Positions 247 through 15,748 of a DNA stretch of 15,748 nucleotides are shown in pieces. This DNA is from a virus (lineage: Duplodnaviria; Heunggongvirae; Uroviricota; Caudoviricetes), in the IMG/VR virus record IMGVR_UViG_2651869748_000011, one strand, 5' to 3'. Below the pieces are notes generated by a model that saw only the letters and a list, made by a program, of their open reading frames with translations, did no database searches and was not told the DNA's origin. A program made the translations under genes and the position numbers. Each line of letters starts with the position of its first letter. Position 1 is the stretch's first letter.

Positions 247-908
247 GCGCCTTCTCCCTGTACCTGAATCAATGTGAGGTTTCCGCAGAACACTGCGCCG
301 GTATCGATATACATCTGGTTGGCAAACTTGAGTGGTTTCACTGCTGGCGTATGACCAAAGATGAACGTGTCCGCACCTTTGATTTCTTTCACGATCCCGT
401 CTTGTGAGTTGCTGATTCGTTCGCGGTTCCAGATTACCTGCTGATGATCAACTGGTTTTCCAAACTCGTATTCGTCACAAGGATAATCGGCGTGGCAGAT
501 GACATATTTTTTATCTTTGCTCACCAGTTCGATGATTAACGGAAGTTCATCTGCTTTATGGGCAAGAGCTTTAGCCAGAATTTCTTTGTCGTAATCGAGA
601 TTAAAGAACCATCCACCGCCATTAAGCAGCCAGTGATTAACGTTTCCACGCTCTGATAAGCCATCAATCATCATTTGCTCATGGTTTCCACGTACAGCTC
701 TGAACCAGGGGAATGTGATTAATTCCAGGCATTCGACGTTCTCTGCACCACGATCAACCAAATCGCCCACCGAGATAAGCAGGTCTTTTTTGTTGTCGAA
801 TCCAATCGTATCCAGTTTGTTCATCAGGTTCGTGTAGCATCCGTGCAGATCGCCAACTACCCAAATATTTCGGTATTTGCTGCCATCAATTTTTTCGTAA
901 TAGCGCAT
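243..908 (-). CDS. ninI: Ser/Thr protein phosphatase (lambda PPase, NinI)
   Basis: From the internal Met, the sequence [25 protein letters not shown]...GDLVDRG...GNHE...GHTP carries the calcineurin-like metallophosphatase motifs (GDxHG, GDxVDRG, GNHE). It is near-identical to lambda phosphatase (221 aa). The ORF-track start at 983 is an upstream extension. Confidence 0.95.
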
Positions 909-1092
909 CTCTTTCACTCCATCCGCGATGAACCATAAGAACATCGTTGACGATGGCGTGCATTTTCCCGTCTTTATCATCAACGTATTTTCTGACCGTA
1001 CCGCGACTACATTTCAGTCTGCGTGCTACTTCTGTCTGGTTTCCGTATGCTTCAACGAGCATGTCTGGAATGGTTTTTACTGAGAACGTCAT
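886..1092 (-). CDS. ninH: NinH protein
   Basis: The 68-aa translation [37 protein letters not shown]... matches lambda NinH, which has an HTH-like segment. It sits between ninG and the phosphatase, as in lambda. Confidence 0.9.
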
Positions 1093-1700
1093 GCGGCCTC
1101 ACTTCTGCTATTTCGCAGGTCTTTGAGTTTCTGTTGGTACTCTGCCTTGATCGCCTTGCACTCTTCGACAGTCCAGCGATGGCGGCTATGGTTTGATTCG
1201 ATTTCGTCTACTGCTTCCTGCCCGATGCGGTTAATCAGTTCGACGCGATACGGAACGAGATTTCCGCTTTTGTGCTGGTTGCACACCACGCATTGCTTGT
1301 GAATATTGCGTTCATCAAATCGGAGTTGAGGTGCCGCAGCAGTTGTCCGGTAATGTCCGGCATCCCACTGAGCAGACGTGAGCGTTCCGCACGAGATACA
1401 TGGTAAGTCGCGGTCTCTTTCTCTGATGAAGGCGTTTACAGCTTGTTGGGCTTGTTTAATCCAGTAACTGCGGGGCTTTAAGGCGAGTTTTCGAATCTTC
1501 AGTTTATCTTTCTGTTTCTGCTCCTCTCGTCGTCGTTTCTTCTCTGCTGCTTTTTCCGCTTTTTCGCGTTCTTTGCTTCGTCGTTCCAGTGCTATCTTTG
1601 TTCCACACTCTGGAGAGCACCACCACTGATTAGCGAATGCAGGGTGAAACCATTCCCGACATTCTTCGTTTTTACATCGTCTTCGCGCTTGTTTAGCCAT
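1089..1700 (-). CDS. ninG: NinG / Rap recombination endonuclease
   Basis: The 203-aa translation [33 protein letters not shown]...[11 protein letters not shown]... is near-identical to lambda NinG (Rap). Its start overlaps the upstream stop (TAATG). Confidence 0.95.
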
Positions 1701-1969
1701 TATGGTTCGCTCCAGTAATTCTCAATTGCAGCAGCCATTCTCTGCATCCACTCTGCCAGCTTTAACGCGGCTTCTCTTTCAGAACCACATTTAGGGAAAT
1801 CCTTCATTTCCATGCTGGCCTTATATGTTCTGAATGCCAGGTCTCCGGTAATAACCAGCTCCTGATCAAGCACCGAGCGTTTATTCCGGTGTTGAACGTA
1901 ATAGACAGATTCAGTCCGCATTTCTTCTCTGTCTTTTTTGAAGGAAATAAGCTCAGAGAAATCACTCAT
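1700..1969 (-). CDS. Hypothetical nin-region protein (89 aa), not present in lambda
   Basis: This is an intact ORF. It is translationally coupled on both sides: its ATG overlaps the ninF stop, and its stop overlaps the ninG ATG. I recognise no family. Confidence 0.6.
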
Positions 1970-2138
1970 CGTCTTCTTCCTCGTACATTGAGCTATTCGG
2001 ATCGCTCATCAGTTCTGCGCAGCAGTGCTCACACACATGAACTTCCAGCACATGCAGCTTCTGACCGCAGTTAGCGCACGTTAAAGCCCGCTCGACGCTT
2101 TCTTTCTGGTATTGAAGAGATTGGGATGGGCTAAGCAT
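1962..2138 (-). CDS. ninF: NinF-like small zinc-ribbon protein (58 aa); below the ORF-track size cut-off
   Basis: Manual translation of the minus strand gives [58 protein letters not shown]. From ESVERALTCANCGQKLHVLEVHVCEHCCAELMSDPNSSM onward it matches lambda NinF, with CxxC...CxxC. Its start overlaps the upstream stop. Confidence 0.8.
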   Translation of the reverse strand: MLSPSQSLQYQKESVERALTCANCGQKLHVLEVHVCEHCCAELMSDPNSSMYEEEDDE

Positions 2139-2490
2139 TATTGGCGTCCTGCATCATGAGAAAGACAATCATGGCGGCGCGGAGGGAATTTTCATGTATA
2201 GCTAGCTTAGATTTACAGTCGGCCACACCACGTGCACCCCACTCGTCTTCATCGAGATTGATGATGCTAATCCTGTACTTCTCAATAATCGGCCATGAGG
2301 CGCTAGGATCATTGCAGTAGTCAGGCAAAGGGTTTAATGGCTCAAAAGTTGTATCAGCATTTCCGTAATACCATTTGTTGGTGTTATTCCCTGATGTTTC
2401 CGGTTTACATGCCCAAAGGCCTTTAAAAATTATGTCTCCTACCATTCTGTTAATTTCAAAATCACTTAACTGTGAATAATCCATTGTCAT
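2131..2490 (-). CDS. NinX-like phage protein (DUF2591-type), nin-region accessory gene
   Basis: The translation [18 protein letters not shown]...[29 protein letters not shown] resembles NinX/DUF2591 proteins of P22-like and lambdoid phages, from memory. The ATG at 2490 forms an ATGA overlap with the ninE stop. An alternative ATG lies at 2484. Confidence 0.6.
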
Positions 2491-2663
2491 TTCCTCGCAC
2501 GATGTCTTAGCCACCGGATATCCCACAGGTGAGCCGTGTAATTGAAGGTTTTTACGTCAGATTCTTTTGGGATTGGCTTGCGTTTATTTCTGGAGCGTTT
2601 CGTTGGAAGGTATTTGCAGTTTTCGCAGATGATGTCGGTGATACTTCGTCGCTGTCGTCTCAT
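2487..2663 (-). CDS. ninE: NinE protein
   Basis: The internal start gives [58 protein letters not shown] (58 aa), matching lambda NinE. It has an ATGA overlap with the methyltransferase stop. Confidence 0.85.
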
Positions 2664-3187
2664 GCCGCCCTCCTGACGCCCTGCCCGATCGCCATCAATG
2701 CCGCTTTGGATACGGTAGTAAACATCCGTCGAGGACTGATGAACGGTCGCCAAATCAGCAGCATGGAACCTTTGCTGTTTCCCTTCTTCTCCAGCCCTGT
2801 CGATGGTTCGATAAAATTAATCCGTCCATCAGTGATAATACGAACTTCGTCAACACTCTCCAGAGCCTTGCTGAACCATCCGACAGACATATCCTCTGGC
2901 ACAAGCATCACTACCGTCTGTCGCTGTTGTATGCACTGCTCAGCGGCTTTTTCCACCCACGGCCTGATATTGCTGTACGGTGGGTTATTCCAGATTGCAC
3001 CGTGGCTTACCCACTCAGAATTGAGCGCGTCGTCGGCCTCAGTTAACCAGTGAGCGCACAGAGCATTTTTGTCGCTCGCTGCCGAATCCAGCCAGAATCC
3101 AAACTCAATATCCAGTGCATCAAAAAGCCAAAGCGGCGTTTGCCAGCAGTCCTTGTCGTGTGCTGGCGTATTTGATTTGATAGTCAT
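2660..3187 (-). CDS. Phage DNA N6-adenine methyltransferase (Dam-like, phage N-6-MTase family)
   Basis: The translation [37 protein letters not shown]...NPPY contains the DPPY/NPPY catalytic motif and the CWQTP motif typical of the phage Dam family. It has an ATGA overlap with the ninB stop and occupies the lambda ninC/D position. Confidence 0.85.
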
Positions 3188-3624
3188 GCAGCCCGATCTC
3201 CCCATCTCGCTTTCCACTCCAGAGCCAGTCTCGCTTCGTCTGACCACTTAACGCCACGCTCTGTACCGAATGCCTGTATAAGCTCTAATAGCTCCGCAAA
3301 TTCGCCTACACGCATCCTGCTGGTTGACTGGCCTATTACCACAAAGCCATTCCCGGCAAGGTTAGGAACAACATCCTGCTGCTTTAATGCTGCGGTAAAC
3401 ACACACTTCCAGCTTTCTGCATCCAGCCAGCGACCATGCCATTCAACCTGACGAGAGACGTCACCTAAGCAGGCCCATAGCTTCCTATTTTGGTCTAAGC
3501 TGCGGTTGCGTTCCTGAATGGTTACTACGATTGGTTTGGTTGGGTCTGGAAGGATTTGCTGTACTGCGTGAATAGCGTTTTGCTGATGTGCTGGAGATCG
3601 AATTTCAAAGGTTAGTTTTTTCAT
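3184..3624 (-). CDS. ninB: NinB (Orf) recombination mediator
   Basis: From the internal Met, MKKLTFEIRSPAHQQNAIHAVQQILPDPTKPIVVTIQERNRSLDQNRKLWA... (146 aa) matches lambda NinB. Confidence 0.95.
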   Translation of the reverse strand: MKKLTFEIRSPAHQQNAIHAVQQILPDPTKPIVVTIQERNRSLDQNRKLWACLGDVSRQVEWHGRWLDAESWKCVFTAALKQQDVVPNLAGNGFVVIGQSTSRMRVGEFAELLELIQAFGTERGVKWSDEARLALEWKARWGDRAA

Positions 3625-3640
3625 GACTTCCCTCTCCCCC

Positions 3641-3672
3641 AAATAAAAAGGCCTGCGATTACCAGCAGGCCT
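3641..3672 (-). terminator. Intrinsic terminator tR2 between ren and ninB
   Basis: The minus strand reads AGGCCTGCtggtaatcGCAGGCCT followed by TTTTTATTT, an 8-bp GC-rich stem plus a U-tract. It has the same sequence and position as lambda tR2. Confidence 0.8.
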
Positions 3673-3697
3673 GTTATTAGCTCAGTAATGTAGATGG

Positions 3698-3988
3698 TCA
3701 TCTTTTAACTCCATATACCGCCAATACCCGTTTCATCGCGGCACTCTGGCGACACTCCTTAAAAATCAGGTTCGTGCTCATCTTTCCTTCCCGTTCTTCC
3801 CTGGTAGCAAACCGGTAATACACCGTTCGCCAGACCTTACCTTCGATAACCAGAAGACCTGCCCGTGCCATTTTAGCCGCGGCCTGATTTATGCTGGTTA
3901 CTGTTGCGCCTGTTAGCGCGGCAACGTCCGGCGCACAGAAGCTATTATGCGTCCCCAGGTAATGAATAATTGCCTCTTTGCCCGTCAT
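3698..3988 (-). CDS. ren: Ren protein (Rex exclusion escape)
   Basis: The 96-aa translation MTGKEAIIHYLGTHNSFCAPDVAALTGATVTSINQAAAKMARAGLLVIEGK... matches lambda Ren. It has an ATGA overlap with the P stop. Confidence 0.95.
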   Translation of the reverse strand: MTGKEAIIHYLGTHNSFCAPDVAALTGATVTSINQAAAKMARAGLLVIEGKVWRTVYYRFATREEREGKMSTNLIFKECRQSAAMKRVLAVYGVKR

Positions 3989-4686
3989 ACACTTGCTCCT
4001 TTCAGTCCGAACTTAGCTTTAATTTCTGCGATCTTCGCCAGAGCCTGTGCACGATTTAGAGGTCTACCGCCCATAACAGGAAGTTGTTTTACTGGTTCAG
4101 GTATCGTCTCACCACGGTTAATTCGCGCTGTCATACAGGTCAGTTCATCGGCAGCCTTGCGCCGTAATTCCGCATCAGTAAGCGCATTGGCCCGCATGTT
4201 CTGATACAGGTTGGTAACCAGCCAGTAGTGCGCGTTTGATTTCCACGGATAAGACTCCGCATCCGGATACAGGCCTCGCTTCCGGCAATACTCGTAAACC
4301 ATATCAACCAGCTCGCTGACGTTTGGCAGTCCGGCGATAACGGATGCTTCTTCCCGGCACCATGCAACAAACTGCCCGGGTGATGGCAGAAATGGTCGAT
4401 TCTGCCGACGGGCTACGCGCATTCCTGCGTTAACCTGTTCCATCGTGGTGATCCCGTTTTCCCGAAAAGCCAGAACCCACTGGCGACGGATTTCGTTCAC
4501 TTCGTTCTGGTCACGGTTAGCCAGGCTCGCCGGGAAAGTTGCCAGTAACTGGCTGAACACACCGTTGATGATCTGCGCTACCTGCTGTACCTGCGGCTTT
4601 TCGTCGTACTGTTCCGGCATGTTGTTGGCGATCCGACGCATCTGCTCACGGTCAAAGTTAACCATCTGTGCGGCGATGTTTTTCAT
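3985..4686 (-). CDS. P: Replication protein P (DnaB helicase loader)
   Basis: The 233-aa translation MKNIAAQMVNFDREQMRRIANNMPEQYDEKPQVQQVAQIINGVF... matches lambda P. Confidence 0.97.
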   Translation of the reverse strand: MKNIAAQMVNFDREQMRRIANNMPEQYDEKPQVQQVAQIINGVFSQLLATFPASLANRDQNEVNEIRRQWVLAFRENGITTMEQVNAGMRVARRQNRPFLPSPGQFVAWCREEASVIAGLPNVSELVDMVYEYCRKRGLYPDAESYPWKSNAHYWLVTNLYQNMRANALTDAELRRKAADELTCMTARINRGETIPEPVKQLPVMGGRPLNRAQALAKIAEIKAKFGLKGASV

Positions 4687-5582
4687 AGATCCACCCCGTA
4701 AATCCAGTCTGTGTTTGTCAGGTCGAGTTTTGGTTTGCTGGCTGTCACGACTGCCTGTTGCTTGTTACGGTTGATTTCGAGCTGGGTCCACTTGTCGCGG
4801 AGTTTGGCCGGACTAAGCACGTTACCGGACCAGAAGTTGTCCTGGCATGCCCAGCGGAACAGCACGCACATGTCGCGGTGGTTACGTCCGTCACGTTCAC
4901 GCATCAGGCGGATATCGTTAGCCCACCCTGCAAAATTCGGTTTTCTGGCTGATGGCGCGATGGTCTTCACCATGTCAAACATCCACTCTGCGGCGGTCAG
5001 GTCTTCTGCTGTCCCCCACTTGCTGCCGCTCTGAATTGCAGCATCCGGTTTCACCACAGAAAGATCGTTTTCTGGCTGGTCAGAGGATTCGCCAGAATTC
5101 TCTGACGAATAATCTTTTCTTTTTTCTTTTGTAATAGTGTCTTTTGTGTCCCTCTGTTTTGAGGGATAGCAATCCCCCAATTTGAGGGATGTTTTATCCC
5201 TCGTTTTAGGGGATTTTCCCTCGTTTTGAGGGATACACCATTCTGAGATGTTTTTATTTGGTCCAAACATGCCGCCTTGCTGCTTGATAATATTCATTCT
5301 GACGAGTTCTAACTTGGCTTCATTGCACCGTTTGACGGGTAACTTTGTAATCTCGCTAAGTTGAGAATCGGTGACTCTGTCCATTGGTTTATTCCACCCA
5401 TAGGTTTTACGCAGAATGGCAAGCAGCACTTTAAACTGTCGCTTGGTCAGATCTGCGCCCGAATAAGCCTCAAGCAGCATATTTGATAGTCTGGCGTAAC
5501 CATCATCGAGATCTGCCACATTACGCTCCTGTCCGGCAAAGTTACCTCTGCCGAAGTTGAGTATTTTTGCTGTATTTGTCAT
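4683..5582 (-). CDS. O: Replication initiator O
   Basis: The 299-aa translation MTNTAKILNFGRGNFAGQERNVADLDDGYARLSNMLLEAYSGADLTKRQFKVLLAILRKTYGWNKPMDR... matches lambda O. The gene contains the ori iterons. Confidence 0.97.
   Translation of the reverse strand: MTNTAKILNFGRGNFAGQERNVADLDDGYARLSNMLLEAYSGADLTKRQFKVLLAILRKTYGWNKPMDRVTDSQLSEITKLPVKRCNEAKLELVRMNIIKQQGGMFGPNKNISEWCIPQNEGKSPKTRDKTSLKLGDCYPSKQRDTKDTITKEKRKDYSSENSGESSDQPENDLSVVKPDAAIQSGSKWGTAEDLTAAEWMFDMVKTIAPSARKPNFAGWANDIRLMRERDGRNHRDMCVLFRWACQDNFWSGNVLSPAKLRDKWTQLEINRNKQQAVVTASKPKLDLTNTDWIYGVDL
5105..5234. repeat. Lambda-type replication origin inside O: four O-binding iterons (5149-5233) plus an adjacent AT-rich unwinding region (5105-5147)
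   Basis: Four internally palindromic repeats of about 18 bp are present: tccctctgttttgaggga, atcccccaatttgagggat, atccctcgttttaggggat and tccctcgttttgaggga. They are flanked by aataatcttttcttttttcttttgtaatagtgtctttt. Confidence 0.9.
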
Positions 5583-5592
5583 AATGACTCCT

Positions 5593-5669
5593 GTTGATAG
5601 ATCCAGTAATGACCTCAGAACTCCATCTGGATTTGTTCAGAACGCTCGGTTGCCGCCGGGCGTTTTTTA
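5593..5669 (+). ncRNA. oop: oop antisense RNA (overlaps the 3' end of cII)
   Basis: The sequence GTTGATAGATCCAGTAATGACCTCAGAACTCCATCTGGATTTGTTCAGAACGCTCGGTTGCCGCCGGGCGTTTTTTA matches the 77-nt lambda oop RNA with its terminator hairpin. The upstream Po elements are TTGCTG..CATAAT. Confidence 0.85.
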
Positions 5670-5908
5670 TTGGTGAGAATCGCAGCAACTTGTCGCGCCA
5701 ATCGAGCCATGTCGTCGTCAACGACCCCCCATTCAAGAACAGCAAGCAGCATTGAGAACTTTGGAATCCAGTCCCTCTTCCACCTGCTGATCTGCGACTT
5801 ATCAACGCCCACAGCTTCCGCTGTCTTCTCAGTTCCAAGCATTGCGATTTTGTTAAGCAACGCACTCTCGATTCGTAGAGCCTCGTTGCGTTTGTTTGCA
5901 CGAACCAT
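5615..5908 (-). CDS. cII: Transcriptional activator cII
   Basis: From the internal Met, MVRANKRNEALRIESALLNKIAMLGTEKTAEAVGVDKSQISRWKRDWIPKFSMLLAVLEWGVVDDDMARLARQVAAILTNKKRPAATERSEQIQMEF (97 aa) matches lambda cII. The ORF-track start at 5968 is an extension. Confidence 0.97.
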   Translation of the reverse strand: MVRANKRNEALRIESALLNKIAMLGTEKTAEAVGVDKSQISRWKRDWIPKFSMLLAVLEWGVVDDDMARLARQVAAILTNKKRPAATERSEQIQMEF

Positions 5909-5918
5909 ATGTAAGTAT
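5886..5918 (+). promoter_or_regulatory. PRE promoter with cII-binding TTGC-N6-TTGC repeat
   Basis: The sequence ttgcgtttgtttgc at 5886-5899 is followed by a -10-like aagtat. The arrangement and location over the cII start match lambda PRE. Confidence 0.7.
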
Positions 5919-5987
5919 TTCCTTAGATAACAATTGATTGAATGTATGCAAATAAATGCATACACCATAGGTGTGGTTTAATTTGAT

Positions 5988-6019
5988 GCCCTTTTTCAGG
6001 GCTGGGATGTGTAAGAGCG
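5988..6019 (-). promoter_or_regulatory. nutR (boxA CGCTCTTA plus boxB hairpin); the tR1 region follows downstream
   Basis: The minus strand reads CGCTCTTACACATCCCAGCCCTGAAAAAGGGC. boxB is GCCCTGAAAAAGGGC at 5988-6002 and boxA is at 6012-6019. The site lies between cro and cII as in lambda. Confidence 0.85.
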
Positions 6020-6027
6020 GGAATATC

Positions 6028-7383
<1,356 letters not shown>

Positions 7384-7433
7384 TCCCCACCTCAATCTCG
7401 ATAACCAAAAAACAAACTATTTTCCGTTTAAAA

Positions 7434-7507
7434 ACAATGGAGTTTGTTTTTCATGCCCCTTTTTTACAATATTTCTTGTTTACAACATACAATCTTTCTT
7501 GTAATTT
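7434..7507 (+). promoter_or_regulatory. 434 left operator (three ACAA-N6-TTGT sites at 7434-7447, 7466-7479 and 7489-7502) and the PL promoter
   Basis: The sites are acaatggagtttgt, acaatatttcttgt and acaatctttcttgt. A sigma70 promoter overlaps them: TTTACA (7479-7484), a 17-nt spacer, then TAATTT (7502-7507), reading towards N. Confidence 0.8.
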
Positions 7508-7547
7508 TAAGCCATCAGCAGGACGCACTGACCACCATTGAAGGTGA

Positions 7548-7578
7548 TGCTCTTAAAAATTAAGCCCTGAAGAAGGGC
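7548..7578 (+). promoter_or_regulatory. nutL (boxA-like TGCTCTTAA plus boxB GCCCTGAAGAAGGGC)
   Basis: The sequence tgctcttaaaaattaaGCCCTGAAGAAGGGC is as in lambda nutL, with one mismatch in boxA. It lies between PL and N. Confidence 0.85.
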
Positions 7579-7736
7579 AGCATTCAAAGCAGAAGGCTTT
7601 GGGGTGTGTGATACGAAACGAAGCATTGGCCGGAAGTGCGAATCCGGATTAGCTGCAAATGAGCCAATCGTGGGGTGTTTTCGTTCAGGACTACGACTCA
7701 CACACACCACCAAAGCTAACTGACAAGAGAATCCAG

Positions 7737-8060
7737 ATGGATGCACAAACACGCCGCCGCGAACGTCGCGCAGAGAAACAGGCTCAATGGAAAGTAGCAA
7801 ATCCCCTGTTGGTTGGGGTAAGCGCAAAACCAGTTAACCGCCCTATTCTCTCGCTGAATCGCAAACCGAAATCACGAGTAGAAAGCGCACTGAATCCGAT
7901 AGACCTTACAGTGCTGGCTGAATACCACGAACAGATTGAAAGCAACCTGCAACGTATTGAGCGCAAGAATCAGCGCACATGGTACAGCAAGCCTGGCGAA
8001 CGCGGCATAACATGCAGTGGACGCCAGAAAATTAAGGGAAAATCGATTCCTCTTACCTAG
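7737..8060 (+). CDS. N: Antitermination protein N
   Basis: From the internal Met, MDAQTRRRERRAEKQAQWKVANPLLVGVSAKPVNRPILSLNRKPKSRVESALNPIDLTVLAEYHEQIESNLQRIERKNQRTWYSKPGERGITCSGRQKIKGKSIPLT (107 aa) has the arginine-rich motif. It is about 97% identical to lambda N, from memory. Confidence 0.95.
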   Translation: MDAQTRRRERRAEKQAQWKVANPLLVGVSAKPVNRPILSLNRKPKSRVESALNPIDLTVLAEYHEQIESNLQRIERKNQRTWYSKPGERGITCSGRQKIKGKSIPLT

Positions 8061-8615
8061 TTACTTAGATATTGGCCTTGGCTTTATCTCAATATTATAT
8101 GGATCATAGCTGGCAACTAATTCAGTCCAGTAAATATCCTCAATAGGGAATAATATATGCTTCCCGTTCCATCGGGAAAAAGTTTTGTTCAACACACCAA
8201 GCTCAATCAACTCACTAATGTATGGGAATTGTTTTGATGTAACCACATACTTCCTGCCTTCATTAAGGGCTGCGCACAAAACCATAGATTGCTCTTCTGT
8301 AAGGTTTTGAATTACCGATCGCACTTTATCGTTTTGCATCTTAATGCGTTTTCTTAGCTTAAATCGCTTATATTTGGCGCTGGCAATAGCTGATAATCGA
8401 TGCACATTAATTGCTAGCGAAAATGCAAGAGCAAAGACGAAAACATGCCACACATGAGGAATACCGATTCTCTCATTAACATATTCAGGCCAGTTATCTG
8501 GGCTTAAAAGCAGAAGTCCAACCCAGATAACGATCATATACATGGTTCTCTCCAGAGGTTCATTACTGAACACTCGTCCGAGAATAACGAGTGGATCCAT
8601 TTCTATACTCATCAA
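8061..8615 (-). CDS. sieB: Superinfection exclusion protein B (SieB), membrane protein
   Basis: The 184-aa ORF runs antisense to the PL operon between N and ral, as lambda sieB does. It has two hydrophobic helices (MYMIVIWVGLLLLS, VWHVFVFALAFSLAINV). The sequence matches my memory of lambda SieB. The true start may be the second Met (8612). Confidence 0.75.
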   Translation of the reverse strand: MMSIEMDPLVILGRVFSNEPLERTMYMIVIWVGLLLLSPDNWPEYVNERIGIPHVWHVFVFALAFSLAINVHRLSAIASAKYKRFKLRKRIKMQNDKVRSVIQNLTEEQSMVLCAALNEGRKYVVTSKQFPYISELIELGVLNKTFSRWNGKHILFPIEDIYWTELVASYDPYNIEIKPRPISK

Positions 8616-8739
8616 ACTGTAGGGGTTGTAATAGTTTATCCGATTTCTCGCTGTAGGGGTACACGAGAACCACCGAGCCTGATGTGGTTAAAAGACAGGC
8701 ACAATCTTTACTACCGCAATCCACTATTTAAGGTGATAT

Positions 8740-8826
8740 ATGGAAGAAGAATTTGAAGAGTTCGAAGAGCATCCGCAGGATGTAATGGAACAGTACCAGG
8801 ACTATCCGTATGACTACGACTATTGA
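8740..8826 (+). CDS. Small acidic protein (28 aa), lambda orf28-like
   Basis: Manual translation gives MEEEFEEFEEHPQDVMEQYQDYPYDYDY*, preceded by AAGGTGA. It overlaps the ral start. It is too short for the ORF track. Confidence 0.5.
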   Translation: MEEEFEEFEEHPQDVMEQYQDYPYDYDY

Positions 8827-8989
8827 TAAGAATCAATGGTGTGGACAATTCAAGCGATGCAATGGATGCAAGCTGCAATCGGAATGCATGGTTAAGCCTG
8901 AAGAAATGTTTCCTGTAATAGAAGATGGGAAATATGTCGATAAATGGGCAATACGAACGACGGCAATGATTGCCAGAGAACTTGGTTAA
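8810..8989 (+). CDS. ral: Ral (restriction alleviation), shortened by a premature TAA (59 aa versus 66 aa)
   Basis: Manual translation gives MTTTIDKNQWCGQFKRCNGCKLQSECMVKPEEMFPVIEDGKYVDKWAIRTTAMIARELG*. After the TAA the same frame continues QNNKAA*, which is the lambda Ral C-terminus. Confidence 0.8.
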   Translation: MTTTIDKNQWCGQFKRCNGCKLQSECMVKPEEMFPVIEDGKYVDKWAIRTTAMIARELG

Positions 8990-9109
8990 CAGAACAACAA
9001 AGCTGCCTGATAGTGGCCTTTATTTTTGGCATAAATAACAGAATAAACACTGCACTGAACCGCCCCGGGAATCCTGGAGACTAAACTCCCTGAGAAAGAG
9101 GTAAACAGG

Positions 9110-9436
9110 ATGACTAAAAATACTCGTTTTTCCCCTGAAGTCCGTCAACGGGCAGCCCGTATGGTTCTGGAAAGTCAGGGCGAATATGACTCACAATGGG
9201 CGACAATTTGTTCCATTGCTCCAAAGATTGGCTGTACGCCGGAGACTCTGCGTGTCTGGGTTCGCCAGCATGAGCGGGATACCGGGGGCGGTGATGGAGG
9301 GCTCACCACCGCTGAACGTCAGCGTCTGAAAGAGCTGGAGCGTGAAAATCGTGAACTGCGCCGCAGTAACGATATCCTTCGCCAGGCTTCCGCTTATTTT
9401 GCGAAGGCGGAGTTCGACCGCCTCTGGAAAAAATAA
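9110..9436 (+). CDS. IS629-like transposase OrfA (HTH, leucine-zipper region)
   Basis: The 108-aa translation is [57 protein letters not shown]...[34 protein letters not shown]. It ends in TGG AAA AAA TAA; the A6 run is the candidate -1 frameshift site. Confidence 0.95.
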
Positions 9437-10323
9437 TGCCGCTGCTGGATAAGCTGCGTGAGCAGTACGGGGTCGGACCGCTATGCAGCGAACTGCATAT
9501 TGCCCCGTCAACGTATTACCACTGTCAGCAACAGCGACATCATCCGGATAAACGCAGTGCCCGTGCGCAGCGCGATGACTGGCTGAAGAAAGAGATACAG
9601 CGCGTATACGATGAAAATCACAAGGTATACGGTGTGCGTAAAGTCTGGCGTCAGTTGTTACGGGAAGGAATCAGAGTGGCCAGATGCACTGTGGCACGTC
9701 TCATGGCGGTTATGGGACTTGCCGGTGTTCTCCGGGGTAAAAAGGTCCGCACTACCGTCAGCCGGAAAGCCGTTGCCGCATGCGACCGCGTAAACCGTCA
9801 GTTCGTGGCAGAACGTCCAGACCAGTTGTGGGTGGCTGATTTTACCTGGGTAAGCACATGGCAGGGCTTCGTTTATGTGGCGTTCATCATTGATGTGTTC
9901 GCCGGATACATCGTGGGATGGCAGGTCTCATCATCCATGGAAACAACATTCGTGCTGGATGCACTGGAGCAGGCGTTGTGGGCCCGTCGGCCGTCCGGCA
10001 CAATCCATCACAGTGATAAAGGTTCTCAGTATGTATCGCTGGCCTACACGCAGCGGCTTAAGGAAGCCGGATTACTGGCATCAACAGGGAGTACTGGCGA
10101 CTCGTATGACAACGCGATGGCGGAGAGCATCAATGGTCTTTACAAAGCGGAGGTAATACACCGTAAGAGCTGGAAAAACCGTGCAGAAGTGGAACTGGCC
10201 ACACTCACGTGGGTGGACTGGTATAACAATCGACGATTGCTGGAAAGGCTGGGCCATACTCCCCCGGCAGAAGCAGAAAAAGCTTATTATGCTTCCATCG
10301 GAAACGATGATCTGGCAGCCTGA
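9436..10323 (+). CDS. IS629-like transposase OrfB (DDE / rve catalytic domain)
   Basis: The 295-aa ORF is in the -1 frame relative to orfA (TAATG overlap). DDE-type motifs are present: WVADFTWV, HHSDKGSQY and DNAMAESINGLYK. Confidence 0.95.
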   Translation: MPLLDKLREQYGVGPLCSELHIAPSTYYHCQQQRHHPDKRSARAQRDDWLKKEIQRVYDENHKVYGVRKVWRQLLREGIRVARCTVARLMAVMGLAGVLRGKKVRTTVSRKAVAACDRVNRQFVAERPDQLWVADFTWVSTWQGFVYVAFIIDVFAGYIVGWQVSSSMETTFVLDALEQALWARRPSGTIHHSDKGSQYVSLAYTQRLKEAGLLASTGSTGDSYDNAMAESINGLYKAEVIHRKSWKNRAEVELATLTWVDWYNNRRLLERLGHTPPAEAEKAYYASIGNDDLAA

Positions 10324-10365
10324 GTTCACAGATAAAACACTCTCCAGGAAACCCGGGGCGGTTCA

Positions 10366-10554
10366 CTGCGTGTGTGGGTTCGTCAGCATGAGCGGGATAC
10401 CGGGAGTGGTGATGGTGGACTCACCACCGCTGAACGTCAGCGTCTGAAAGAGCTGGAACGTGAAAATCGTGAACTGCGCCGCAGTAACGATATCCTTCGC
10501 CAGGCTTCCGCTTATTTTGCGAAGGCGGAGTTCGACCGCCTCTGGAAAAAATAA
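10366..10554 (+). pseudogene. Truncated orfA remnant of the second IS629-like copy
   Basis: The in-frame remnant [62 protein letters not shown] corresponds to residues 47-108 of OrfA. The native start, RBS and HTH are absent. Confidence 0.8.
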
Positions 10555-11441
10555 TGCCGCTGCTGGATAAGCTGCGTGAGCAGTACGGGGTCGGACCGGT
10601 ATGCAGTGAACTGCATATTGCCCCGTCAACGTATTACCACTGTCAGCAACAGCGACATCATCCTGATAAACGCAGTGCCCGTGCTCAGCGCGATGACTGG
10701 CTGAAGAGAGAGATACAGCGCGTATACGATGAAAATCACAAGGTATACGGTGTGCGTAAAGTCTGGCGCCAGTTGTTACGCGAAGGTATCAGGGTGGCCA
10801 GATGTACAGTGGCGCGCCTCATGGCGGTTATGGGACTTGCCGGTGTTCTCCGGGGTAAAAAGGTCCGTACTACCGTCAGCCGGAAAGCCGTTTCCGCAGG
10901 CGACCGCGTAAACCGTCAGTTCGTGGCAGAACGTCCTGACCAGCTGTGGGTGGCTGATTTTACTTACGTCAGCACATGGCAGGGCTTCGTCTATGTGGCG
11001 TTCATCATTGATGTGTTTGCCGGATGTATCGTGGGGTGGCGAGTCTCATCGTCTATGGAAACGACATTCGTGCTGGATGCACTGGAGCAGGCGTTGTGGG
11101 CCCGTCGGCCGTCCGGCACAGTCCATCACAGTGATAAAGGTTCTCAGTATGTATCACTGGCCTATACGGAGCGACTAAAAGAAGCAAAACTGCTGGCATC
11201 AACAGGGAGTACAGGTGACTCGTATGACAACGCGATGGCGGAGAGCATCAATGGTCTTTACAAAGCGGAGGTAATACACCGTAAGAGCTGGAAAAACCGT
11301 GCAGAAGTGGAACTGGCCACACTCACGTGGGTGGACTGGTATAACAATCGACGATTGCTGGGAAGGCTGGGTCATATCCCTCCGGCAGAAGCAGAAAAAG
11401 CTTATTATGCTTCCATCAGAAACGATGATCTGGCAGCCTGA
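10554..11441 (+). CDS. IS629-like transposase OrfB (second copy, intact ORF)
   Basis: The 295-aa ORF is about 96% identical to 9436-10323 and keeps the DDE motifs. It probably cannot be made as an OrfAB fusion because orfA is truncated. Confidence 0.85.
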   Translation: MPLLDKLREQYGVGPVCSELHIAPSTYYHCQQQRHHPDKRSARAQRDDWLKREIQRVYDENHKVYGVRKVWRQLLREGIRVARCTVARLMAVMGLAGVLRGKKVRTTVSRKAVSAGDRVNRQFVAERPDQLWVADFTYVSTWQGFVYVAFIIDVFAGCIVGWRVSSSMETTFVLDALEQALWARRPSGTVHHSDKGSQYVSLAYTERLKEAKLLASTGSTGDSYDNAMAESINGLYKAEVIHRKSWKNRAEVELATLTWVDWYNNRRLLGRLGHIPPAEAEKAYYASIRNDDLAA

Positions 11442-11713
11442 GTTCACAGATAAAACACTCTCCAGGAAAACCGGGGCGGTTCAAATAACATTGTGCGTAC
11501 TCCTCTTGAGAAGGTGAGAACTATCGGTATCGCAGACACAGTTATGCCTACGGGTCTCCCCGCATCGGTCATTCTCAAAAGGTTTAAAATAGGGTTAGGT
11601 TTGATCACTCTGAACGATCAATCGAAGACATTACGATTGGAACAAACGATCAATAGGTATGTGGTTATTTGCTAAGCTGCGACAACCTTTACAAAGACAC
11701 TCAGGAATGTTTC

Positions 11714-12022
11714 ATGCCCAAATTAGCTATTAGCTTATTACTTTACTTGGCCTGCTTTTATGCAGTTGGATATGGCGCTGGATATATAACAGGTGGAATA
11801 ACTTGGCACACACTGTATATGCTTGAACGTATAATTACCGTAGCCCTACTTGCATTCATTCCAGTGTTTATCTTTGCGGCTTTATTAAATGCATCCAAAA
11901 GACAAGGAATAATAAAATCACTTTCTGTCTCAGCGATTAATTTAATCCCTTCGGCTATCGCATTACTTATAGGATTTACTGACGCAGTGACCAGAAAGTT
12001 TCTTACTTATTTTCTCGGTTAA
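11714..12022 (+). CDS. Small integral membrane protein (102 aa, about 3-4 TM helices), unknown function
   Basis: The translation is MPKLAISLLLYLACFYAVGYGAGYITGGITWHTLYMLERIITVALLAFIPVFIFAALLNASKRQGIIKSLSVSAINLIPSAIALLIGF... The RBS AGGAA lies 7 nt upstream. The gene is AT-rich relative to its neighbours. It is convergent with the minus-strand operon and overlaps it by 20 nt. Confidence 0.6.
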   Translation: MPKLAISLLLYLACFYAVGYGAGYITGGITWHTLYMLERIITVALLAFIPVFIFAALLNASKRQGIIKSLSVSAINLIPSAIALLIGFTDAVTRKFLTYFLG

Positions 12023-12194
12023 CTGACATATTGCGAATGACCAACTGTTCTATTAGCTCATTACGAGAATAAAATGGTCGGTCATTCGTAGCCGCTTTAT
12101 CCACGCCAAGCATCGACAATAGAATAGAAGTGGGAAGCCCCCGGTAACGCAGGGTCAAACGGCCTTCGGGAGTGCGTGGGTCAATCATAGCCAT
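12003..12194 (-). CDS. Hypothetical small protein (63 aa) downstream of the KilA-N gene
   Basis: The translation is MAMIDPRTPEGRLTLRYRGLPTSILLSMLGVDKAATNDRPFYSRNELIEQLVIRNMSVNRENK. GGAG lies 9 nt upstream of the ATG at 12194. The ORF-track start at 12209 is a GTG inside the KilA-N gene. The helix-extended-helix-like segment is only a guess. Confidence 0.45.
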   Translation of the reverse strand: MAMIDPRTPEGRLTLRYRGLPTSILLSMLGVDKAATNDRPFYSRNELIEQLVIRNMSVNRENK

Positions 12195-12196
12195 TG

Positions 12197-12682
12197 TTAA
12201 AGTCTCCACTCACAGCGACCGACACGTAGCTCCTCAAACTCCTCTTTCGAGACGAGTTGTCCAGCCCTGTAGTGCGATACCGTGTGCTTCTTAATGAATG
12301 CCTTAGAGTCCGGCGTGATGTCGTCCGAAGATGCTACAGCGGCCTGTACGCTGGCACTGGAGGTCATAGACACAAAGGCATCCGCTACAGCTATTCCGTA
12401 CTCAAAGTCCAGCCACTCGCCAAACTTGACGGCGGACGTGGGGTCAGCAAGCCATGACGTACCGAGGCGACCCATATCAACTTTCTTTATGCGGCGGTTT
12501 TTCTGCCCCATAAGATAGCGCCCGACTTTGGTCTGAGCGAAACGCTTAACCATTGTCTTCTCGGTGTCTTCTACCTTACCAATCTGAATACCGACCCGGC
12601 GAATTTCATCCAATCGGAACAATCCGTCTTGACTGGTGAGGTCCTGACCGAAGATATGGATAGTGTATTCTTGTTGAGACAT
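12197..12682 (-). CDS. KilA-N domain-containing protein (161 aa)
   Basis: The RBS is AAGGAG, 9 nt upstream. The segment ...RLGTSWLADPTSAVKFGEWLDFEYGIAV... matches the conserved GTW(v/l)hp..a..fa.WlsPef core of the KilA-N (PF04383-like) DNA-binding domain, from memory. Confidence 0.65.
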   Translation of the reverse strand: MSQQEYTIHIFGQDLTSQDGLFRLDEIRRVGIQIGKVEDTEKTMVKRFAQTKVGRYLMGQKNRRIKKVDMGRLGTSWLADPTSAVKFGEWLDFEYGIAVADAFVSMTSSASVQAAVASSDDITPDSKAFIKKHTVSHYRAGQLVSKEEFEELRVGRCEWRL

Positions 12683-12905
12683 ATCGTTGTACTCCTTTTA
12701 TCTGCATCCTGAAGCCGCATCCTGCCGCCTACTCAAAGCCCCCAACGATAGGGAGACGGCAGGCAACAAGACGCAGATAGAATGACTTTGAGATTTGATG
12801 ATTAGTGTCGGCGGTGGCACTTATTTAAAACGAAAGGACAACAGCATATTTCCGCATGACTTGACGCATCAAGGCCAGAGGCAGAAATAAGTATTTGCTC
12901 GGTGT

Positions 12906-12928
12906 CGTTCCTAAGGTGATAGTTTAGT
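12906..12928 (-). promoter_or_regulatory. Second, degenerate T7-family phage-RNAP promoter-like sequence (predicted +1 G at 12911)
   Basis: The minus strand reads ACTAAACTATCACCTTAGGAACG. Positions -17..-5 are identical to the element at 13470-13458. The sequence differs from it at -4, -3, +3, +5 and +6. It lies between the 60-aa ORF stop and the KilA-N leader. Confidence 0.4.
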
Positions 12929-13110
12929 CAAACAGTAATGAACTTCGGAGAACTTGACTCGAAAGTGTTCAGGACTTCCAGTGAGACCCGAAGTATGGAG
13001 ATCATATTATAGCGACCATAGTTTACTTCGGACTGACAGGACTGGAGGCTGGACTTAAAGTTCTTCTTATTGGAATTGTGATAACACAATCCATAACAAG
13101 ATAAACTCAT
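12928..13110 (-). CDS. Hypothetical small protein (60 aa)
   Basis: The ATG at 13110 is preceded by TGAGGAGACC. The translation is MSLSCYGLCYHNSNKKNFKSSLQSCQSEVNYGRYNMISILRVSLEVLNTFESSSPKFITV. The stop TGA overlaps the -17 end of the second promoter-like element. I recognise no family, so coding status is uncertain. Confidence 0.35.
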   Translation of the reverse strand: MSLSCYGLCYHNSNKKNFKSSLQSCQSEVNYGRYNMISILRVSLEVLNTFESSSPKFITV

Positions 13111-13447
13111 GGTCTCCTCAAGCCTGCTGGTCAAGACTCAAAGCTCCAACCTCAGACACCACCACTGGTCTAACCTCTTTGAGTTTCCGCCTGTCCACAA
13201 ATGGATGGCAGACCTCAGCAATGATGTCTTGGTTCTTCAGTTATCCGCGCAGCGATTATCACAGAGCCAACTTAAAGTCGGATGTGGTCTTCTGCTCCCC
13301 GCCTGTCAAAAGGGAAGATAACCTACGTTAAAAGAGAATGGTCTCAGGCCAAGGTGATTTAACACTAGGCGTCTGCGGATGGTTTCCAATCGGTCCGCTA
13401 CCGGAAGCCTGAGACTATATGAATGTGTGGGTCGGTGACTTAGGGCC

Positions 13448-13470
13448 TCTCCCTATAGTGATAGTTTAGT
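13448..13470 (-). promoter_or_regulatory. T7-family single-subunit RNAP promoter-like sequence, K1F-type specificity block (predicted +1 G at 13453)
   Basis: The minus strand reads ACTAAACTATCACTATAGGGAGA. Positions -8..+6 (TCACTATAGGGAGA) are identical to the T7 consensus TAATACGACTCACTATAGGGAGA. Positions -12..-8 (ACTAT) match the K1F-type promoter, as I recall it. The element is intergenic, 18 nt after the DUF4145 stop. Confidence 0.65.
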
Positions 13471-13488
13471 CCCCCTTCCCCGTCAGCC

Positions 13489-14148
13489 CTACTCGTTAGC
13501 GGCCTGTTGCTGTTCCCTCGCTTTCCGGTCCCGGTCTTCAATGCCCTTAAGCGCCCGTTCCGGCATACTGTTAAACATGGCTTCGACTTCTTTCGGTCGA
13601 GTAATCTGCTCAGTGACAATAATGTTCAGCAGCTTAAAGAGACCATGCGCCAACTGAGGGTCGTCATCAATGTTAATTTCACCCGGATGTACCGCCTGAT
13701 TGCCAACAATACGACAGATGTCAGCAGCTCGCTGGACCAGTGGAGACAGCCCTTTAGCTACAAGGGACTTAATGTCCGTGTCGATATGCTTCCCCGGCTC
13801 ACCGAGATGGACCATCAGCTTTTGAAGACTTAAGCGCAGGAGTGCGGCAGCGCCCTTAGGTGACAGATTAATGATGCTTCTGGCTTCCATGTAGTCGGAC
13901 TTACAGTCTTCTGGCATGTCAGGATTAGGCAGCTCAACACTACCAGCCGCAGGAATCATCATATTGCCTTTATACCAATAAGCATTTTCATAGCAATGTT
14001 GACAATATGATAAGTGGAAATCAGTTTCCATATAAGTAGAATGAGGCGCAACTCCCACCATTGACCGCCAGCTTTGCTTGGAATAAACACCACAGTGCGG
14101 GCAATTAAAAGCTTTACCATCAAACACCGCCGGATAATACTCAGCCAT
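13489..14148 (-). CDS. Zinc-ribbon plus DUF4145 domain protein (219 aa), candidate phage-defence/abortive-infection cargo
   Basis: The N-terminus has CPHCG...CQHC (a zinc ribbon). The C-terminal segment [18 protein letters not shown]...[31 protein letters not shown] fits the DUF4145 signature (L..I..L...g.l....lR..GN.aaH), from memory. The start ATG overlaps the integrase stop (ATGGCTGA). Confidence 0.7.
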
Positions 14149-15748
14149 TTACTCCAGTCTCCTTATAAACATCAGCCATCACATTAACCAATCTATCTAC
14201 CTCGACTTCTTTCGCATACCTGTCATAGGTAATCGACCCTGAGCTATGACCCATAATCGCCTGAGCATACGCTAACCCGACCCCATGTTGTTTTAACTGG
14301 GTCGCCACTGTATGTCTGAATGAGTGGAACGCTAAGCCGCTACGGTCAGCGAGGACTTTAGGTAGCAACGTTCTGTTAAACCATTTGCTCACCTGCTCAC
14401 CGTAGCCGTTCTTCATCAGCTTGAGGCCATCGAATACCATAGCATTATCACCCTTAGCCTTTCTACGGTCTTCCACGAGTGACATAAAGTCAGCCAATAA
14501 AAAACCATAAGCACCATCTACCAACGGGACACAGCGGTCACTATGGGCGTTCTTGATGCTCTTACCCGGTAGGCTGCTATCGTCTTCGTTGATATGGATA
14601 TACACGGTCCCGGCCTCAGTGGTCCTGACGTCTTTGACCTGAAGCTGAGCCACCTCATTAAGTCTTGCTCCAGTGATTGCCGCCAGAGCAGTGACGTAAT
14701 AGTGGTAGGGCTTACCTGAGGTCTTCTGAGAGTACGCTTTAGCGGCGACCAGTAGTTGCCCTACCTGCTCAGGACTGAACGCATCACGAGCGTCGGAGGC
14801 TTTACGCTGCGGGACTTTCAGCTCAAGACCTTCGGTCAGGTTCTTAGCTATCAAGTCGTTGCGTACCGCCCACTTAAACACAGCAGCCATCTTGATAAGA
14901 TATTTATTGTTGATGGTAACGACATCCAAACAGTCAGTCTTAGACTCCCGGTTCAGCAGGTCAGACAGCGGCATAGACTTAAAGCGTTGCTTGCGGTTCT
15001 TCGGTATCTGCTGGAGGACTTCACGGACCCTGAGCATATCTGAACGGGTCGCCTTGCTGACATCCTGAATATCCAGATAGTCGAATATCTCGATTAACGT
15101 AGAGTGAGACGCTCGGTTCTCGCTTAGGGTCGCTGGCTTCCAGTTCTGAGCGTTCTCCTGCTCGTACTGCTCAATGAGAGACGCGAGGGTCAGTGCTTTA
15201 GGCTCGGGGACTTCAGGCTCTGCCAATACAGATAGGGAGACGGACGGTCTTAGACTGCCAGTCTCAGGCTCAAGGTAAGACAACAGGCCAGAGGTATCGC
15301 CTTTGAGTCTATCCTGACACGCTTTAAGCACACCGATAACGTCATTGATATAGCGATGCTGGTCTACAGTCAGATGCTCAGTCGCTACAGCTTCCCGAAG
15401 GTTGGACTTGATGTCATCGTACTGGTCAACGTAGAGCTGGTAGGACTCAGGGTCGTTCAGGTCATCGCGGCTGACACTAAGTTCCCACTCGACAATGGTC
15501 TTCAGGTGTTCCCGTAGCTCCTCATAAGAGGCGTTAGGGTTGTCTGCGTGGATTGCTTTAAGTGCTGACTTGATGTGCCGTGAGTGAGCCATAGCGGTAC
15601 GTCTATCCTTGGTCCGTAAAGATACTGACGCTAGTTTATAACGGTTGTGAGAAGGAAGCGAAGCGGTCAGGCGACTAGTGGTCTTCATCCTAAGACGGAT
15701 GTAAAAGACACCGTTACGCTGATAAAGGTAGGTTCTTGAATTGAGCAT
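14141..15748 (-). CDS. Tyrosine recombinase / integrase with a long N-terminal extension (535 aa); the ATG is at the window edge
   Basis: The C-terminal catalytic motifs are present: [13 protein letters not shown] (Arg I), [13 protein letters not shown] (H-x-x-R) and [15 protein letters not shown] (His, Tyr nucleophile). The start codon occupies the last three bases of the window, so the true N-terminus could lie further upstream. Confidence 0.9.

Follow-up and report, generated by a model that had tools for sequence, protein, structure and literature searches.

T7-like phages make their own RNA polymerase and inactivate that of the host. The late promoters of satellite P4 are activated by the Ogr of its helper, phage P2 (not to be confused with the promoter called P2 below), and PICI and PLE are other helper-induced satellites; all of these are integrative elements in which an operon is wired to a transcription component of the infecting phage and a variable slot holds defence genes, as would be the case in the island described here.

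For the “integrase-only” defence islands of E. coli, a satellite nature was suspected by the authors (Hochhauser et al., 2023, PMC10121019). PD-T7-4, now named RAZR, is described as an abortive-infection RNase that responds to activation by T7 and T3 portal proteins (PMC13017515; Vassallo et al., 2022, PMC9519451). Engineered expression systems of the pET and orthogonal T7-K1F kind use K1F-type and T7-type promoters as orthogonal inputs (Temme et al., 2012, PMC3458549).

The locus analysed here lies in a window of 15,748 nucleotides, by which we mean the whole stretch of DNA under study, and has two phage-type promoters, P1 and P2, facing the same small operon. Given the observed identity to phage promoters, the conservation, the co-variation and the anatomy of the island, we put at roughly 0.8 the probability that P2 works as a promoter, driving the operon of the island, for the single-subunit RNA polymerase that K1F-type (Kayfunavirus) phages make. 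Taken by itself, P2 is nothing unusual within a known promoter class; what appears to be new is the presence of paired, co-varying promoters of phage type in a family of chromosomal islands.

The island in the window

The window contains, in truncated form, a 6-7 kb integrative island at tRNA-Gly, a small mobile element of the E. coli chromosome. Positions 11481-15748 recur with 100% identity in the chromosome of E. coli Res13-Lact-PEA14-20, in which the region adjoins tRNA-Gly and a remnant of the ETT2 secretion system. Read along the minus strand, the order is integrase, RAZR/PD-T7-4, P1, about 520 nt of non-coding DNA, P2, leader, a gene for a 161-aa protein, a small gene and IS3 copies. 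The features are as follows.

15748-14141, minus strand: tyrosine integrase, 535 aa (Pfam Phage_integrase, E 8e-19); the window ends at its start codon
14148-13489, minus strand: RAZR / PD-T7-4, zinc ribbon and DUF4145/HEPN RNase, anti-T7-like defence gene in the variable slot of the island
13472-13448, minus strand: P1, GGACTAAACTATCACTATAGGGAGA, consensus K1F-type promoter, class-III-like, +1 at 13453
12929-13447, minus strand: segment between P1 and P2, about 520 nt, probably non-coding, holding a 60-aa ORF (13110-12931) and two GACAGGCGG motifs
12928 (-17) to 12906 (+6), minus strand: P2, ACTAAACTATCACCTTAGGAACG, 23 bases, K1F-type promoter of the gene-4 (class II) variant, predicted +1 at 12911
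12888-12848, minus strand: conserved stem-loop near the 5' end of the predicted P2 transcript (+24 to +64), ATTTCTGCC...GCGGAAAT, from the minimum-energy fold; kept in 9 of 12 aligned islands
12779-12699, minus strand: leader hairpin of about 80 nt directly 5' of the ribosome-binding site, with 76-83% conservation across 16 islands of about 10 genera
12682-12197, minus strand: 161-aa protein, first gene 3' of P2, weakly KilA-N/APSES-like
12209-12003, minus strand: small gene, 63-68 aa, same operon, after the 161-aa gene; a hypothetical protein in all homologous records
9248-11483, strand not given: two partial tandem IS3 copies, cutting off the far end of the island

A tRNA-Gly(CCC) lies just beyond the end of the window, past the integrase. 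The gene in the variable slot overlaps the integrase gene and is a full-length PD-T7-4 (PADLOC profile, E 1.7e-99, residues 1-209 of 211 profile positions), with a match to Pfam DUF4145 at E 3.4e-13. At the other end, agreement with the intact-island record begins only at 11481; the IS3 copies form a direct repeat of 1118 nt, 95-97% identical, and cut off two core genes, of 163 and about 328 aa, which are absent from the window. Because it is truncated by IS3, the island may be decaying in this strain.

Its full extent can be seen in an intact relative from Citrobacter (locus L037), which is 6.3 kb long and bounded by a 22-nt repeat of the 3' end of tRNA-Gly, with attL at that 3' end and attR 6.3 kb away, and which holds the two further conserved genes, of 163 and about 330 aa. 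One metagenome-assembly contig of 6,289 nt (L067, from Logan) spans exactly attL to attR, so that an integrase in a discrete att-bounded element, as expected of a satellite, is seen in both L037 and L067. Nothing convincing for replication or packaging was found among the core genes in Pfam or PHROG. The 328-aa core protein gives weak hints of a head or capsid protein (model pLDDT 44.9; best Foldseek match at E 0.02); with a poor model, no Pfam match and an hhalign probability of 0.2% against K1F gp10, we retain the capsid assignment as a lead only.

The two copies and their register

The window has two exact copies, and no more, of the 14-mer GACTAAACTATCAC, at 12929-12916 and 13471-13458, each on the minus strand. 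This bears out the exact repeat reported in an earlier, sequence-only reading of this DNA, coordinates and strand included; there is no third copy in the window with up to two mismatches. The likeness extends beyond the 14-mer, with 18 of 20 bases equal between 12910-12929 and 13452-13471; the minus strand reads ...tgtttGACTAAACTATCACCTTAGGAACGACACC... at 12929-12900 and ...ggggGACTAAACTATCACTATAGGGAGAGGCC... at 13471-13443. P1 is the upstream copy, by 542 nt.

The register proposed for P2 was likewise correct in every element: -17 falls at 12928 and +1 at 12911, a GG occupies +1/+2 (12911-12910), and the ATG of the downstream gene, at 12682, is 229 nt past +1. The TGA stop of an upstream 60-aa ORF occupies 12930-12928. 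The same reading had cautioned that a repeat of this length may arise by chance; this is fair for any 14-mer repeat, and the same scan found four unrelated exact 13-mer repeats in the window, but the proper test is a comparison with phage promoters.

Correspondence to promoters of K1F-type phages

Short-word BLAST matches P2 (12929-12910, GACTAAACTATCACCTTAGG) at 20 of 20 bases to positions 10865-10884 of phage K1F, between an upstream ORF and gene 4 (primase/helicase). Its equivalent in phage EcoDS1 is CCTAAACTATCACCTTAGGGATG at 11107-11129, an annotated phage promoter, and in 18/18 related viral contigs gene 4 is preceded by the CACCTTAGG variant. These contigs, 39-40 kb in length, have one copy each of TAAACTATCACCTTAGG, placed 55-392 nt 5' of the gp4 homologue in 18/18, and they include phages in which gp4 is just 84-88% identical to that of K1F. 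Since it precedes gp4 in all 18 contigs, CCTT at -4 to -1 is to be regarded as the variant that this group of phages conserves in its gene-4 promoter (class II, DNA-metabolism). P1, for its part, is identical at 25/25 bases to the capsid-gene promoter of K1F, EcoDS1 and hundreds of related phage records, and the records of EcoDS1, CR44b and PE3-1 carry a promoter annotation there.

With a scoring matrix built from 22 promoters of K1F and EcoDS1, P1 reaches 37.0 bits and P2 31.4, within the range of the phages' own sites (30.8-38.3). An earlier matrix of 11 sites gave 8.5 bits to the next best among some 31,000 window positions, against a background of -32 +/- 9.7. That next-best score belongs to a possible third copy inside the RAZR gene, at 13872-13850; it is about what the best random site among 31,000 would score, and we counted it as chance.

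The bases of P2 at -12 to -7 are ACTATC, lying inside AACTATCAC (-13 to -5), and are the same in all strong promoters of K1F and EcoDS1. This stretch is the contact region of the polymerase specificity loop, and K1F-type promoters are orthogonal to those of T7 (PMC3458549). Since P2 is off consensus at -4/-3 and at +3 to +6, it may be weak. The variant departs from the class III consensus and precedes a DNA-metabolism gene in the phages, as a class II promoter does. In T7-like phages, class II promoters are weaker than those of class III, come into use earlier and are more sensitive to lysozyme. The suggestion that a class-II-like second phage-polymerase promoter is paired here with a class-III-like one appears sound in all the computational tests run, and on these comparisons P2 is an intact variant of the gene-4 type, not a damaged copy of P1.

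Promoter type co-varies across the island family

The window region has matches in 386 of 5,426 complete E. coli genomes, and a search with the integrase yielded 21 loci, from Citrobacter, Buttiauxella, Shimwellia, Shigella, Enterobacter, Klebsiella, Rouxiella, Pectobacterium, Proteus, Lonsdalea, Morganella, Kluyvera, Edaphovirga and Serratia. The slot after the integrase varies among islands, holding RAZR, an HNH endonuclease or other genes, and so does the gene after the leader, which is KilA-N, Rha or of the 161-aa family. Phage-type promoters stand at the same two positions in related islands of E. coli and of no fewer than 12 other genera of Enterobacterales. Most have T7-group promoters at both, in the same direction and about 460-630 nt apart where both are intact; a few loci show one promoter site or none in our scan. 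The specificity (K1F, T7, K11 or others) differs between islands and matches inside each, as in these examples.

Window, L031 and L058-L065: first position K1F type; second position K1F type
L036: first position a 26-nt match to T7 phi9; second position T7 phi1.1A-like, degenerate
L035 (E. coli) and L046 (K. pneumoniae ATCC 13883): first position K11-type and perfect T7 promoters in tandem; second position TAATTAGGTAGCAC type
L049 (Proteus): AATTAACCCACAC at both positions, the ACCCACAC type twice
L048 (Pectobacterium): AATTAACTATCACTATTGGGAGA at both positions, the TATTGGGAGA type twice
L050 (Lonsdalea): AATAACGACTCAC at both positions

Over -17 to -8, the best identity between the two positions averages 8.5 of 10 bases within islands, versus 6.3 when islands are permuted, a value that not one of 20,000 permutations attains; when eight islands, each of a different type, are taken, the true pairing alone attains the observed value among 40,320. 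A check for co-variation in homologous islands had been named in advance as informative, and it came out positive, with K1F, T7, K11, ACCCACAC and TATTGGGAGA types matched at both positions. Part of this agreement may come from duplication or gene conversion between the two positions; the Citrobacter island L037 has a 42-nt repeat, 86% identical.

At finer scale, the site of P2 is the canonical CACTATAGG in four sister E. coli islands (L061, L031, L062 and L064). Among islands that share the downstream sequence of the window, CCTT is found in the window, L058 and L060 and the canonical TATA in L061, and the CCTT variant is also present in L034, at another position. An alignment of 12 islands over 70 nt on either side shows the promoter block to be best conserved and the flanks of the junction to be mosaic; the site is split by an insertion in L041 and L042. 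Tandem stacks of three to five promoters of different specificities are present in L035/L046 and L053. The other promoter types of the islands also occur in viral contigs of about 40 kb, some of them in many copies. Three short IMG/VR contigs with a ATACCCTCAC-type promoter (L083, L086 and L087) proved not to be islands of this family.

The operon behind P2 and its proposed control

The leader from P2 to the ATG is 229 nt long. The conserved stem-loop at 12888-12848 may have a function. For the hairpin at 12779-12699, RNAalifold gives 27 pairs, with compensatory changes in 8 of the 27, and a strong ribosome-binding site, AAGGAG, is found at 12697-12692. Promoter, long irregular hairpin and strong ribosome-binding site together would recall the layout of T7 transcription units.

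The first gene had been taken as the head of a “KilA-N operon,” a label too strong as it stands. The 161-aa protein matches no family in Pfam (KilA-N included), PADLOC or PHROG and has no relative among 50,697 phage records (tblastn). It is 64% identical to the product of the second gene of the operon in island L032, and 23% identical (pairwise E 1e-4) to a Pfam-positive KilA-N protein encoded by the first gene of that operon; the label KilA-N-like is therefore plausible but weak. The small gene at 12209-12003 likewise has no family match in Pfam, PADLOC or PHROG.

No sigma-70-like promoter and no intrinsic terminator was found on the minus strand between 11400 and 14300, and the operon has no recognisable host-type promoter upstream. 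As the scan gave no terminator, transcription from the integrase-RAZR operon may also read through.

A gene behind a copy of a phage promoter would be silent until infection and then be expressed despite the shut-off of the host, because the phage both brings its polymerase and disables that of the host. We propose that, on infection by a cognate phage, which produces a polymerase of its own and turns off that of the host, the phage polymerase would start at P1 and P2 and transcribe the island operon, consisting of leader hairpin, strong ribosome-binding site, 161-aa KilA-N-like protein and small protein, to which intact islands would add the proteins of 163 and about 328 aa. As its polymerase would transcribe the operon from P1 and P2, the phage enzyme would be at once the sensor of infection and the means of expression. 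P2 may be the weaker or earlier, class-II-type input, close to the genes, and P1 the strong late-type input, which would also yield the 520-nt non-coding leader. Initiation at the two sites, their relative strengths and the role of the induced genes are what we infer from the comparisons above.

The island suggests a satellite-like element, being att-bounded, with a conserved core, a swappable defence slot and no mobility gene beyond the integrase. The induced genes could serve satellite-like mobilisation or form an abortive-defence operon, and we regard the two as equally possible. A wider proposal, to which we give somewhat less than even odds, is that the islands are an undescribed family of 6-7 kb Enterobacterales elements that act as parasites or sentinels of virulent T7-like phages. 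They would have copied the promoters of the phages that attack their hosts, often two or three specificities in tandem, and phage RNA polymerase would switch on their operon after host shut-off; the element would then be excised, replicated or packaged, perhaps in a capsid of the 328-aa protein, and deliver a swappable anti-phage gene such as RAZR.

The segment between the promoters

The DNA between P1 and P2 is 85-90% identical among K1F-type islands, and short blocks of it, such as TTTAACGTA...CAGGCGG, are also found in distant islands. The 60-aa ORF, which runs up to P2, is preceded by a good ribosome-binding site, and the position of its stop is as first described; its standing as a gene is not, and we reject it, as the frame is frameshifted, truncated or fused in the homologous islands L037, L038, L044, L041 and L031. 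With the DNA conserved and the reading frame broken, the segment is probably non-coding. It folds somewhat better than shuffled sequence (z = -2.9), and in a permissive Rfam search of 11400-14200 the sole match was to a lncRNA at E 0.9, far under the family threshold and not credible.

Conservation as nucleotides rather than as an ORF is what would be expected if P1 and P2 were mainly cis-acting signals of a satellite, at which transcription by phage polymerase primes replication of the excised island or marks it for packaging, gene expression being secondary. Such a role, compatible with the promoter-switch reading, seems to us rather unlikely, though it is the strongest of the alternatives. 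The island is discrete, att-bounded and without a replication gene of its own, and island-sized contigs (6.2-7.8 kb) are frequent in assemblies. Between the two positions, L032, L035/L046, L036 and L049 have an AT-rich block with TTAAAG-type repeats (36-41% GC), the P2 of L036 resembles T7 phi1.1A, an origin promoter, and the modelled 328-aa core protein may hint at a head or capsid function.

Against this, outside the promoters no significant similarity was found to the genome ends, concatemer junctions or origins of K1F, EcoDS1 and T7, and the capsid hints come from a model with a pLDDT of 44.9 and are met by the negative hhalign comparison with K1F gp10. The sequence-only reading had drawn an analogy to the T7 primary origin, which the window does not confirm: its promoters are 542 nt apart, versus 75 nt in T7, and there is no AT-rich block between them, GC never falling below 0.37 in 60-nt windows. 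A mimic of the phage concatemer junction or terminal repeat was also considered, the leader having TATCTG and the phage TATCTGT; the single 12-mer in common with the K1F terminal repeat is at chance level (E 7.8), and the candidate was dropped.

Other explanations for the two sites

We consider it very improbable that the second copy arose as a repeat by chance or is a duplicate of P1 that has decayed and lost its function. A window of this size does contain chance repeats of 13-14 exact bases, the consensus is not kept by P2 at -4/-3 and +3 to +6, and decay does occur in the family, where the site is split in L041 and L042 and degenerate in L036. Both “defects,” however, recreate the conserved phage gene-4 promoter exactly; the variant recurs in L058 and L060 and, elsewhere placed, in L034; the position is conserved and co-varies across genera; and the 31.4 bits of P2 (22-site matrix) stand against 8.5 for the best unrelated position of the window (11-site matrix).

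Nor is it at all likely that the sites are decoys or roadblocks, which bind phage polymerase and titrate it, or collide with phage processes, without productive expression of the island. The stacking of three to five specificities in L035/L046 and L053 and the non-consensus melting region of P2 could be read in this way, but the enzyme serves at least 11 promoters on each of many replicating phage genomes and cannot be titrated by two to five sites in the chromosome, and all sites face a conserved operon whose leader is structured and whose ribosome-binding site is strong.

An origin of the sites as relics without a present role, left by a T7-like prophage or taken up from a phage through recombination, is scarcely credible: the promoters are indeed identical to those of phages over 20-26 nt and temperate T7-like phages exist, among them LUZ100 (PMC10134795), but similarity to phages ends at the promoter edges, the tested island proteins have no tblastn match in 50,697 phage records, and specificities that match at two positions would not have persisted in relics across more than a dozen genera. 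Captured DNA was looked for by short-word BLAST, in which 13500-11481 was compared with K1F and EcoDS1, and L036 with T7; promoters alone were found.

Comparison with known systems

Perfect promoters of T7, K11 or K1F type are not expected in natural chromosomes. In the literature covered on phage-polymerase promoters in islands, satellites or defence, which took in few subscription papers, there is no description of these islands, and the keyword-searched passages of papers on RAZR, PD-T7-4 and defence islands make no mention of such promoters. If the promoter-switch reading is true, bacteria, or the mobile elements in them, have found a way to express genes once the host polymerase has been silenced by a T7-like phage, using the phage enzyme as sensor and engine. 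This would be a first handle on satellites or inducible defences directed at virulent podophages, including the K1F-type phages considered for therapy of K1 E. coli, and it would account for the “integrase-only” defence islands. The islands would also form a natural catalogue of polymerase-promoter pairs that shows which phage types prey on which host.

The nearest relative of P2 is the gene-4 promoter of K1F and EcoDS1 (Kayfunavirus, class-II-type), with which it agrees over 20 nt, including CCTT for TATA at -4 to -1 and the GG start. The phage promoter lies in a phage, whereas P2 lies in a bacterial chromosomal island; the transcribed sequence begins GGGATG in the phage and GGAACG in the island, differing from +3, and the gene downstream of P2 is unrelated to phage genes. 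The arrangement as a whole recalls the class II/III hierarchy of T7 and the tandem promoters phi1.1A/phi1.1B of its primary origin, as the island likewise has one consensus and one variant promoter, on the same strand and in the same direction. In island L036, of T7 type, the second site is phi1.1A-like; the T7 promoters are 75 nt apart, whereas those of the window are separated by 542 nt and lack an AT-rich origin block.

Compared with P4, PICI and PLE, the signal to the island would be the whole RNA polymerase of the helper, acting on copies of its own promoters, and its source would be virulent podophages of the T7-like kind; genes for replication or packaging are not recognisable in the island, the mobilisation of which is putative. 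The “integrase-only” islands (PMC10121019), and PD-T7-4 in its integrase-linked context (Vassallo et al., 2022, PMC9519451), share with our island an integrase that overlaps the defence gene and the lack of other known mobility genes; the keyword-searched passages of these papers do not mention phage-polymerase promoters, a conserved operon or a leader RNA. A functional parallel is found in pET and T7-K1F expression systems, where a silent gene behind a phage-polymerase promoter is turned on only when the polymerase is supplied, as we propose for the island; those systems are engineered, whereas the island is natural, with promoter arrays that appear matched to the phages circulating in each host genus.

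Promoters of Several Specificities

Related islands carry promoters in varied number and type, and one further, weak site lies in the window itself:

L035 (E. coli AR435), 4965-5090: promoter stack, a perfect T7 promoter and two K11-type promoters
L046 (K. pneumoniae ATCC 13883), 8245-8375: promoter stack of the same composition
L032, 7335-7353, minus strand: K1F-type promoter between integrase and variable gene
L034, 5926-5944, minus strand: K1F-type promoter in the same position, CCTT variant
L041 (E. coli ECMA0423) and L042 (Shigella flexneri SFBU1023), 8844-10118: second promoter split by an insert
Window, 13850-13872, minus strand: weak third promoter-like site, ATTAATCTGTCACCTAAGGGCGC

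The perfect 23-nt T7 promoter TAATACGACTCACTATAGGGAGA is found in natural chromosomes, placed between two K11-type promoters (AATTAGGGCACACTATAGGG...) and with a fourth promoter ~460 nt downstream; a single island here presents a stack of several promoter specificities. The islands inserted in ynfE/F (L032 and L034) have an additional K1F-type promoter, which in L034 is again the variant with CCTT for TATA, and the variable gene behind it is either that of an HNH endonuclease or one for a protein of 166 aa. This placement suggests that in these islands the cargo gene itself may be driven by the phage polymerase.

The second promoter is interrupted in L041 and L042 by an insertion of ~1.25 kb, reading ACTAAACTATCACTAT / insert / CACTATAGGGACC, with CACTAT apparently duplicated. 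The site ATTAATCTGTCACCTAAGGGCGC, within the RAZR defence gene, has 75% identity to the window's second promoter copy, and was considered as a third promoter; it is probably a chance occurrence, since its score of 8.5 bits is about that expected of the best random position.

The Island as a Unit and Its Junction with a Prophage

The left part of the window belongs to a different mobile element, and a core protein of the island is present in its relatives instead:

Window, 1-9052: early region of a lambdoid prophage, with Bet, replication O/P and a LexA-type repressor
Window, 9248-11483: two partial tandem IS3 copies, period 1118 nt, 95-97% identical
L067, 4815-5801, and L037 (intact Citrobacter island), 10766-11761: core protein of 328-331 aa, not encoded in the window

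The IS3 copies connect the prophage part to the island. Because the last two core genes of the island are absent from the window, we infer that the two mobile elements were fused in this strain by an IS3-mediated rearrangement. Elsewhere, many homologues of the island core proteins lie on assembly contigs of 6.2-7.8 kb, and the Logan contig L067 (SRR29658376_5451, 6289 nt) is an intact island running exactly from attL to attR. These contigs fit a discrete unit that may have been excised or be present in several copies; island-sized contigs could also be the product of assembly breaks at the att repeat.

For the 328-331-aa core protein, weak but one-sided hints point to a putative phage head protein: 10 of 15 family members touched PHROG 122, annotated as "head decoration", at a best E of 0.019, and the top Foldseek matches in BFVD of a poor model (pLDDT 44.9) were head or capsid proteins at E 0.02-0.1. 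Comparison with K1F gp10 by hhalign was negative.

Leader Hairpin and Repeat Arrays

Window, 12699-12779, minus strand: leader hairpin of ~80 nt
L036, 4930-5000 and 4400-4600, minus strand: short tandem arrays and AT-rich block
L035, 4630-4760: tandem array/AT-rich repeat region

The hairpin, directly 5' of the ribosome-binding site, is kept in 16 islands from ~10 genera independently of promoter type and downstream gene, with compensatory changes at 8 pairs. The exact 13-mer GATAGGGAGACGG occurs twice on the plus strand of the window, within the hairpin (12747-12759) and within the integrase gene (15231-15243), and this repeat may be chance.

The T7-type islands (L036 and L035) have short tandem arrays upstream of the first promoter, GATGACCATAGGC three times and TGTGGTCCT four times, and between the promoters an AT-rich block rich in TTAAAG/CTTAAAGAC repeats. 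Neither arrays nor block aligned significantly with T7; the TTAAAG/CTTAAAGAC repeats are reminiscent of the short CCTAAAG repeats that T7 DNA carries close to its ends, and the leader hairpin appears similar in position and shape to the RNase III sites of T7.
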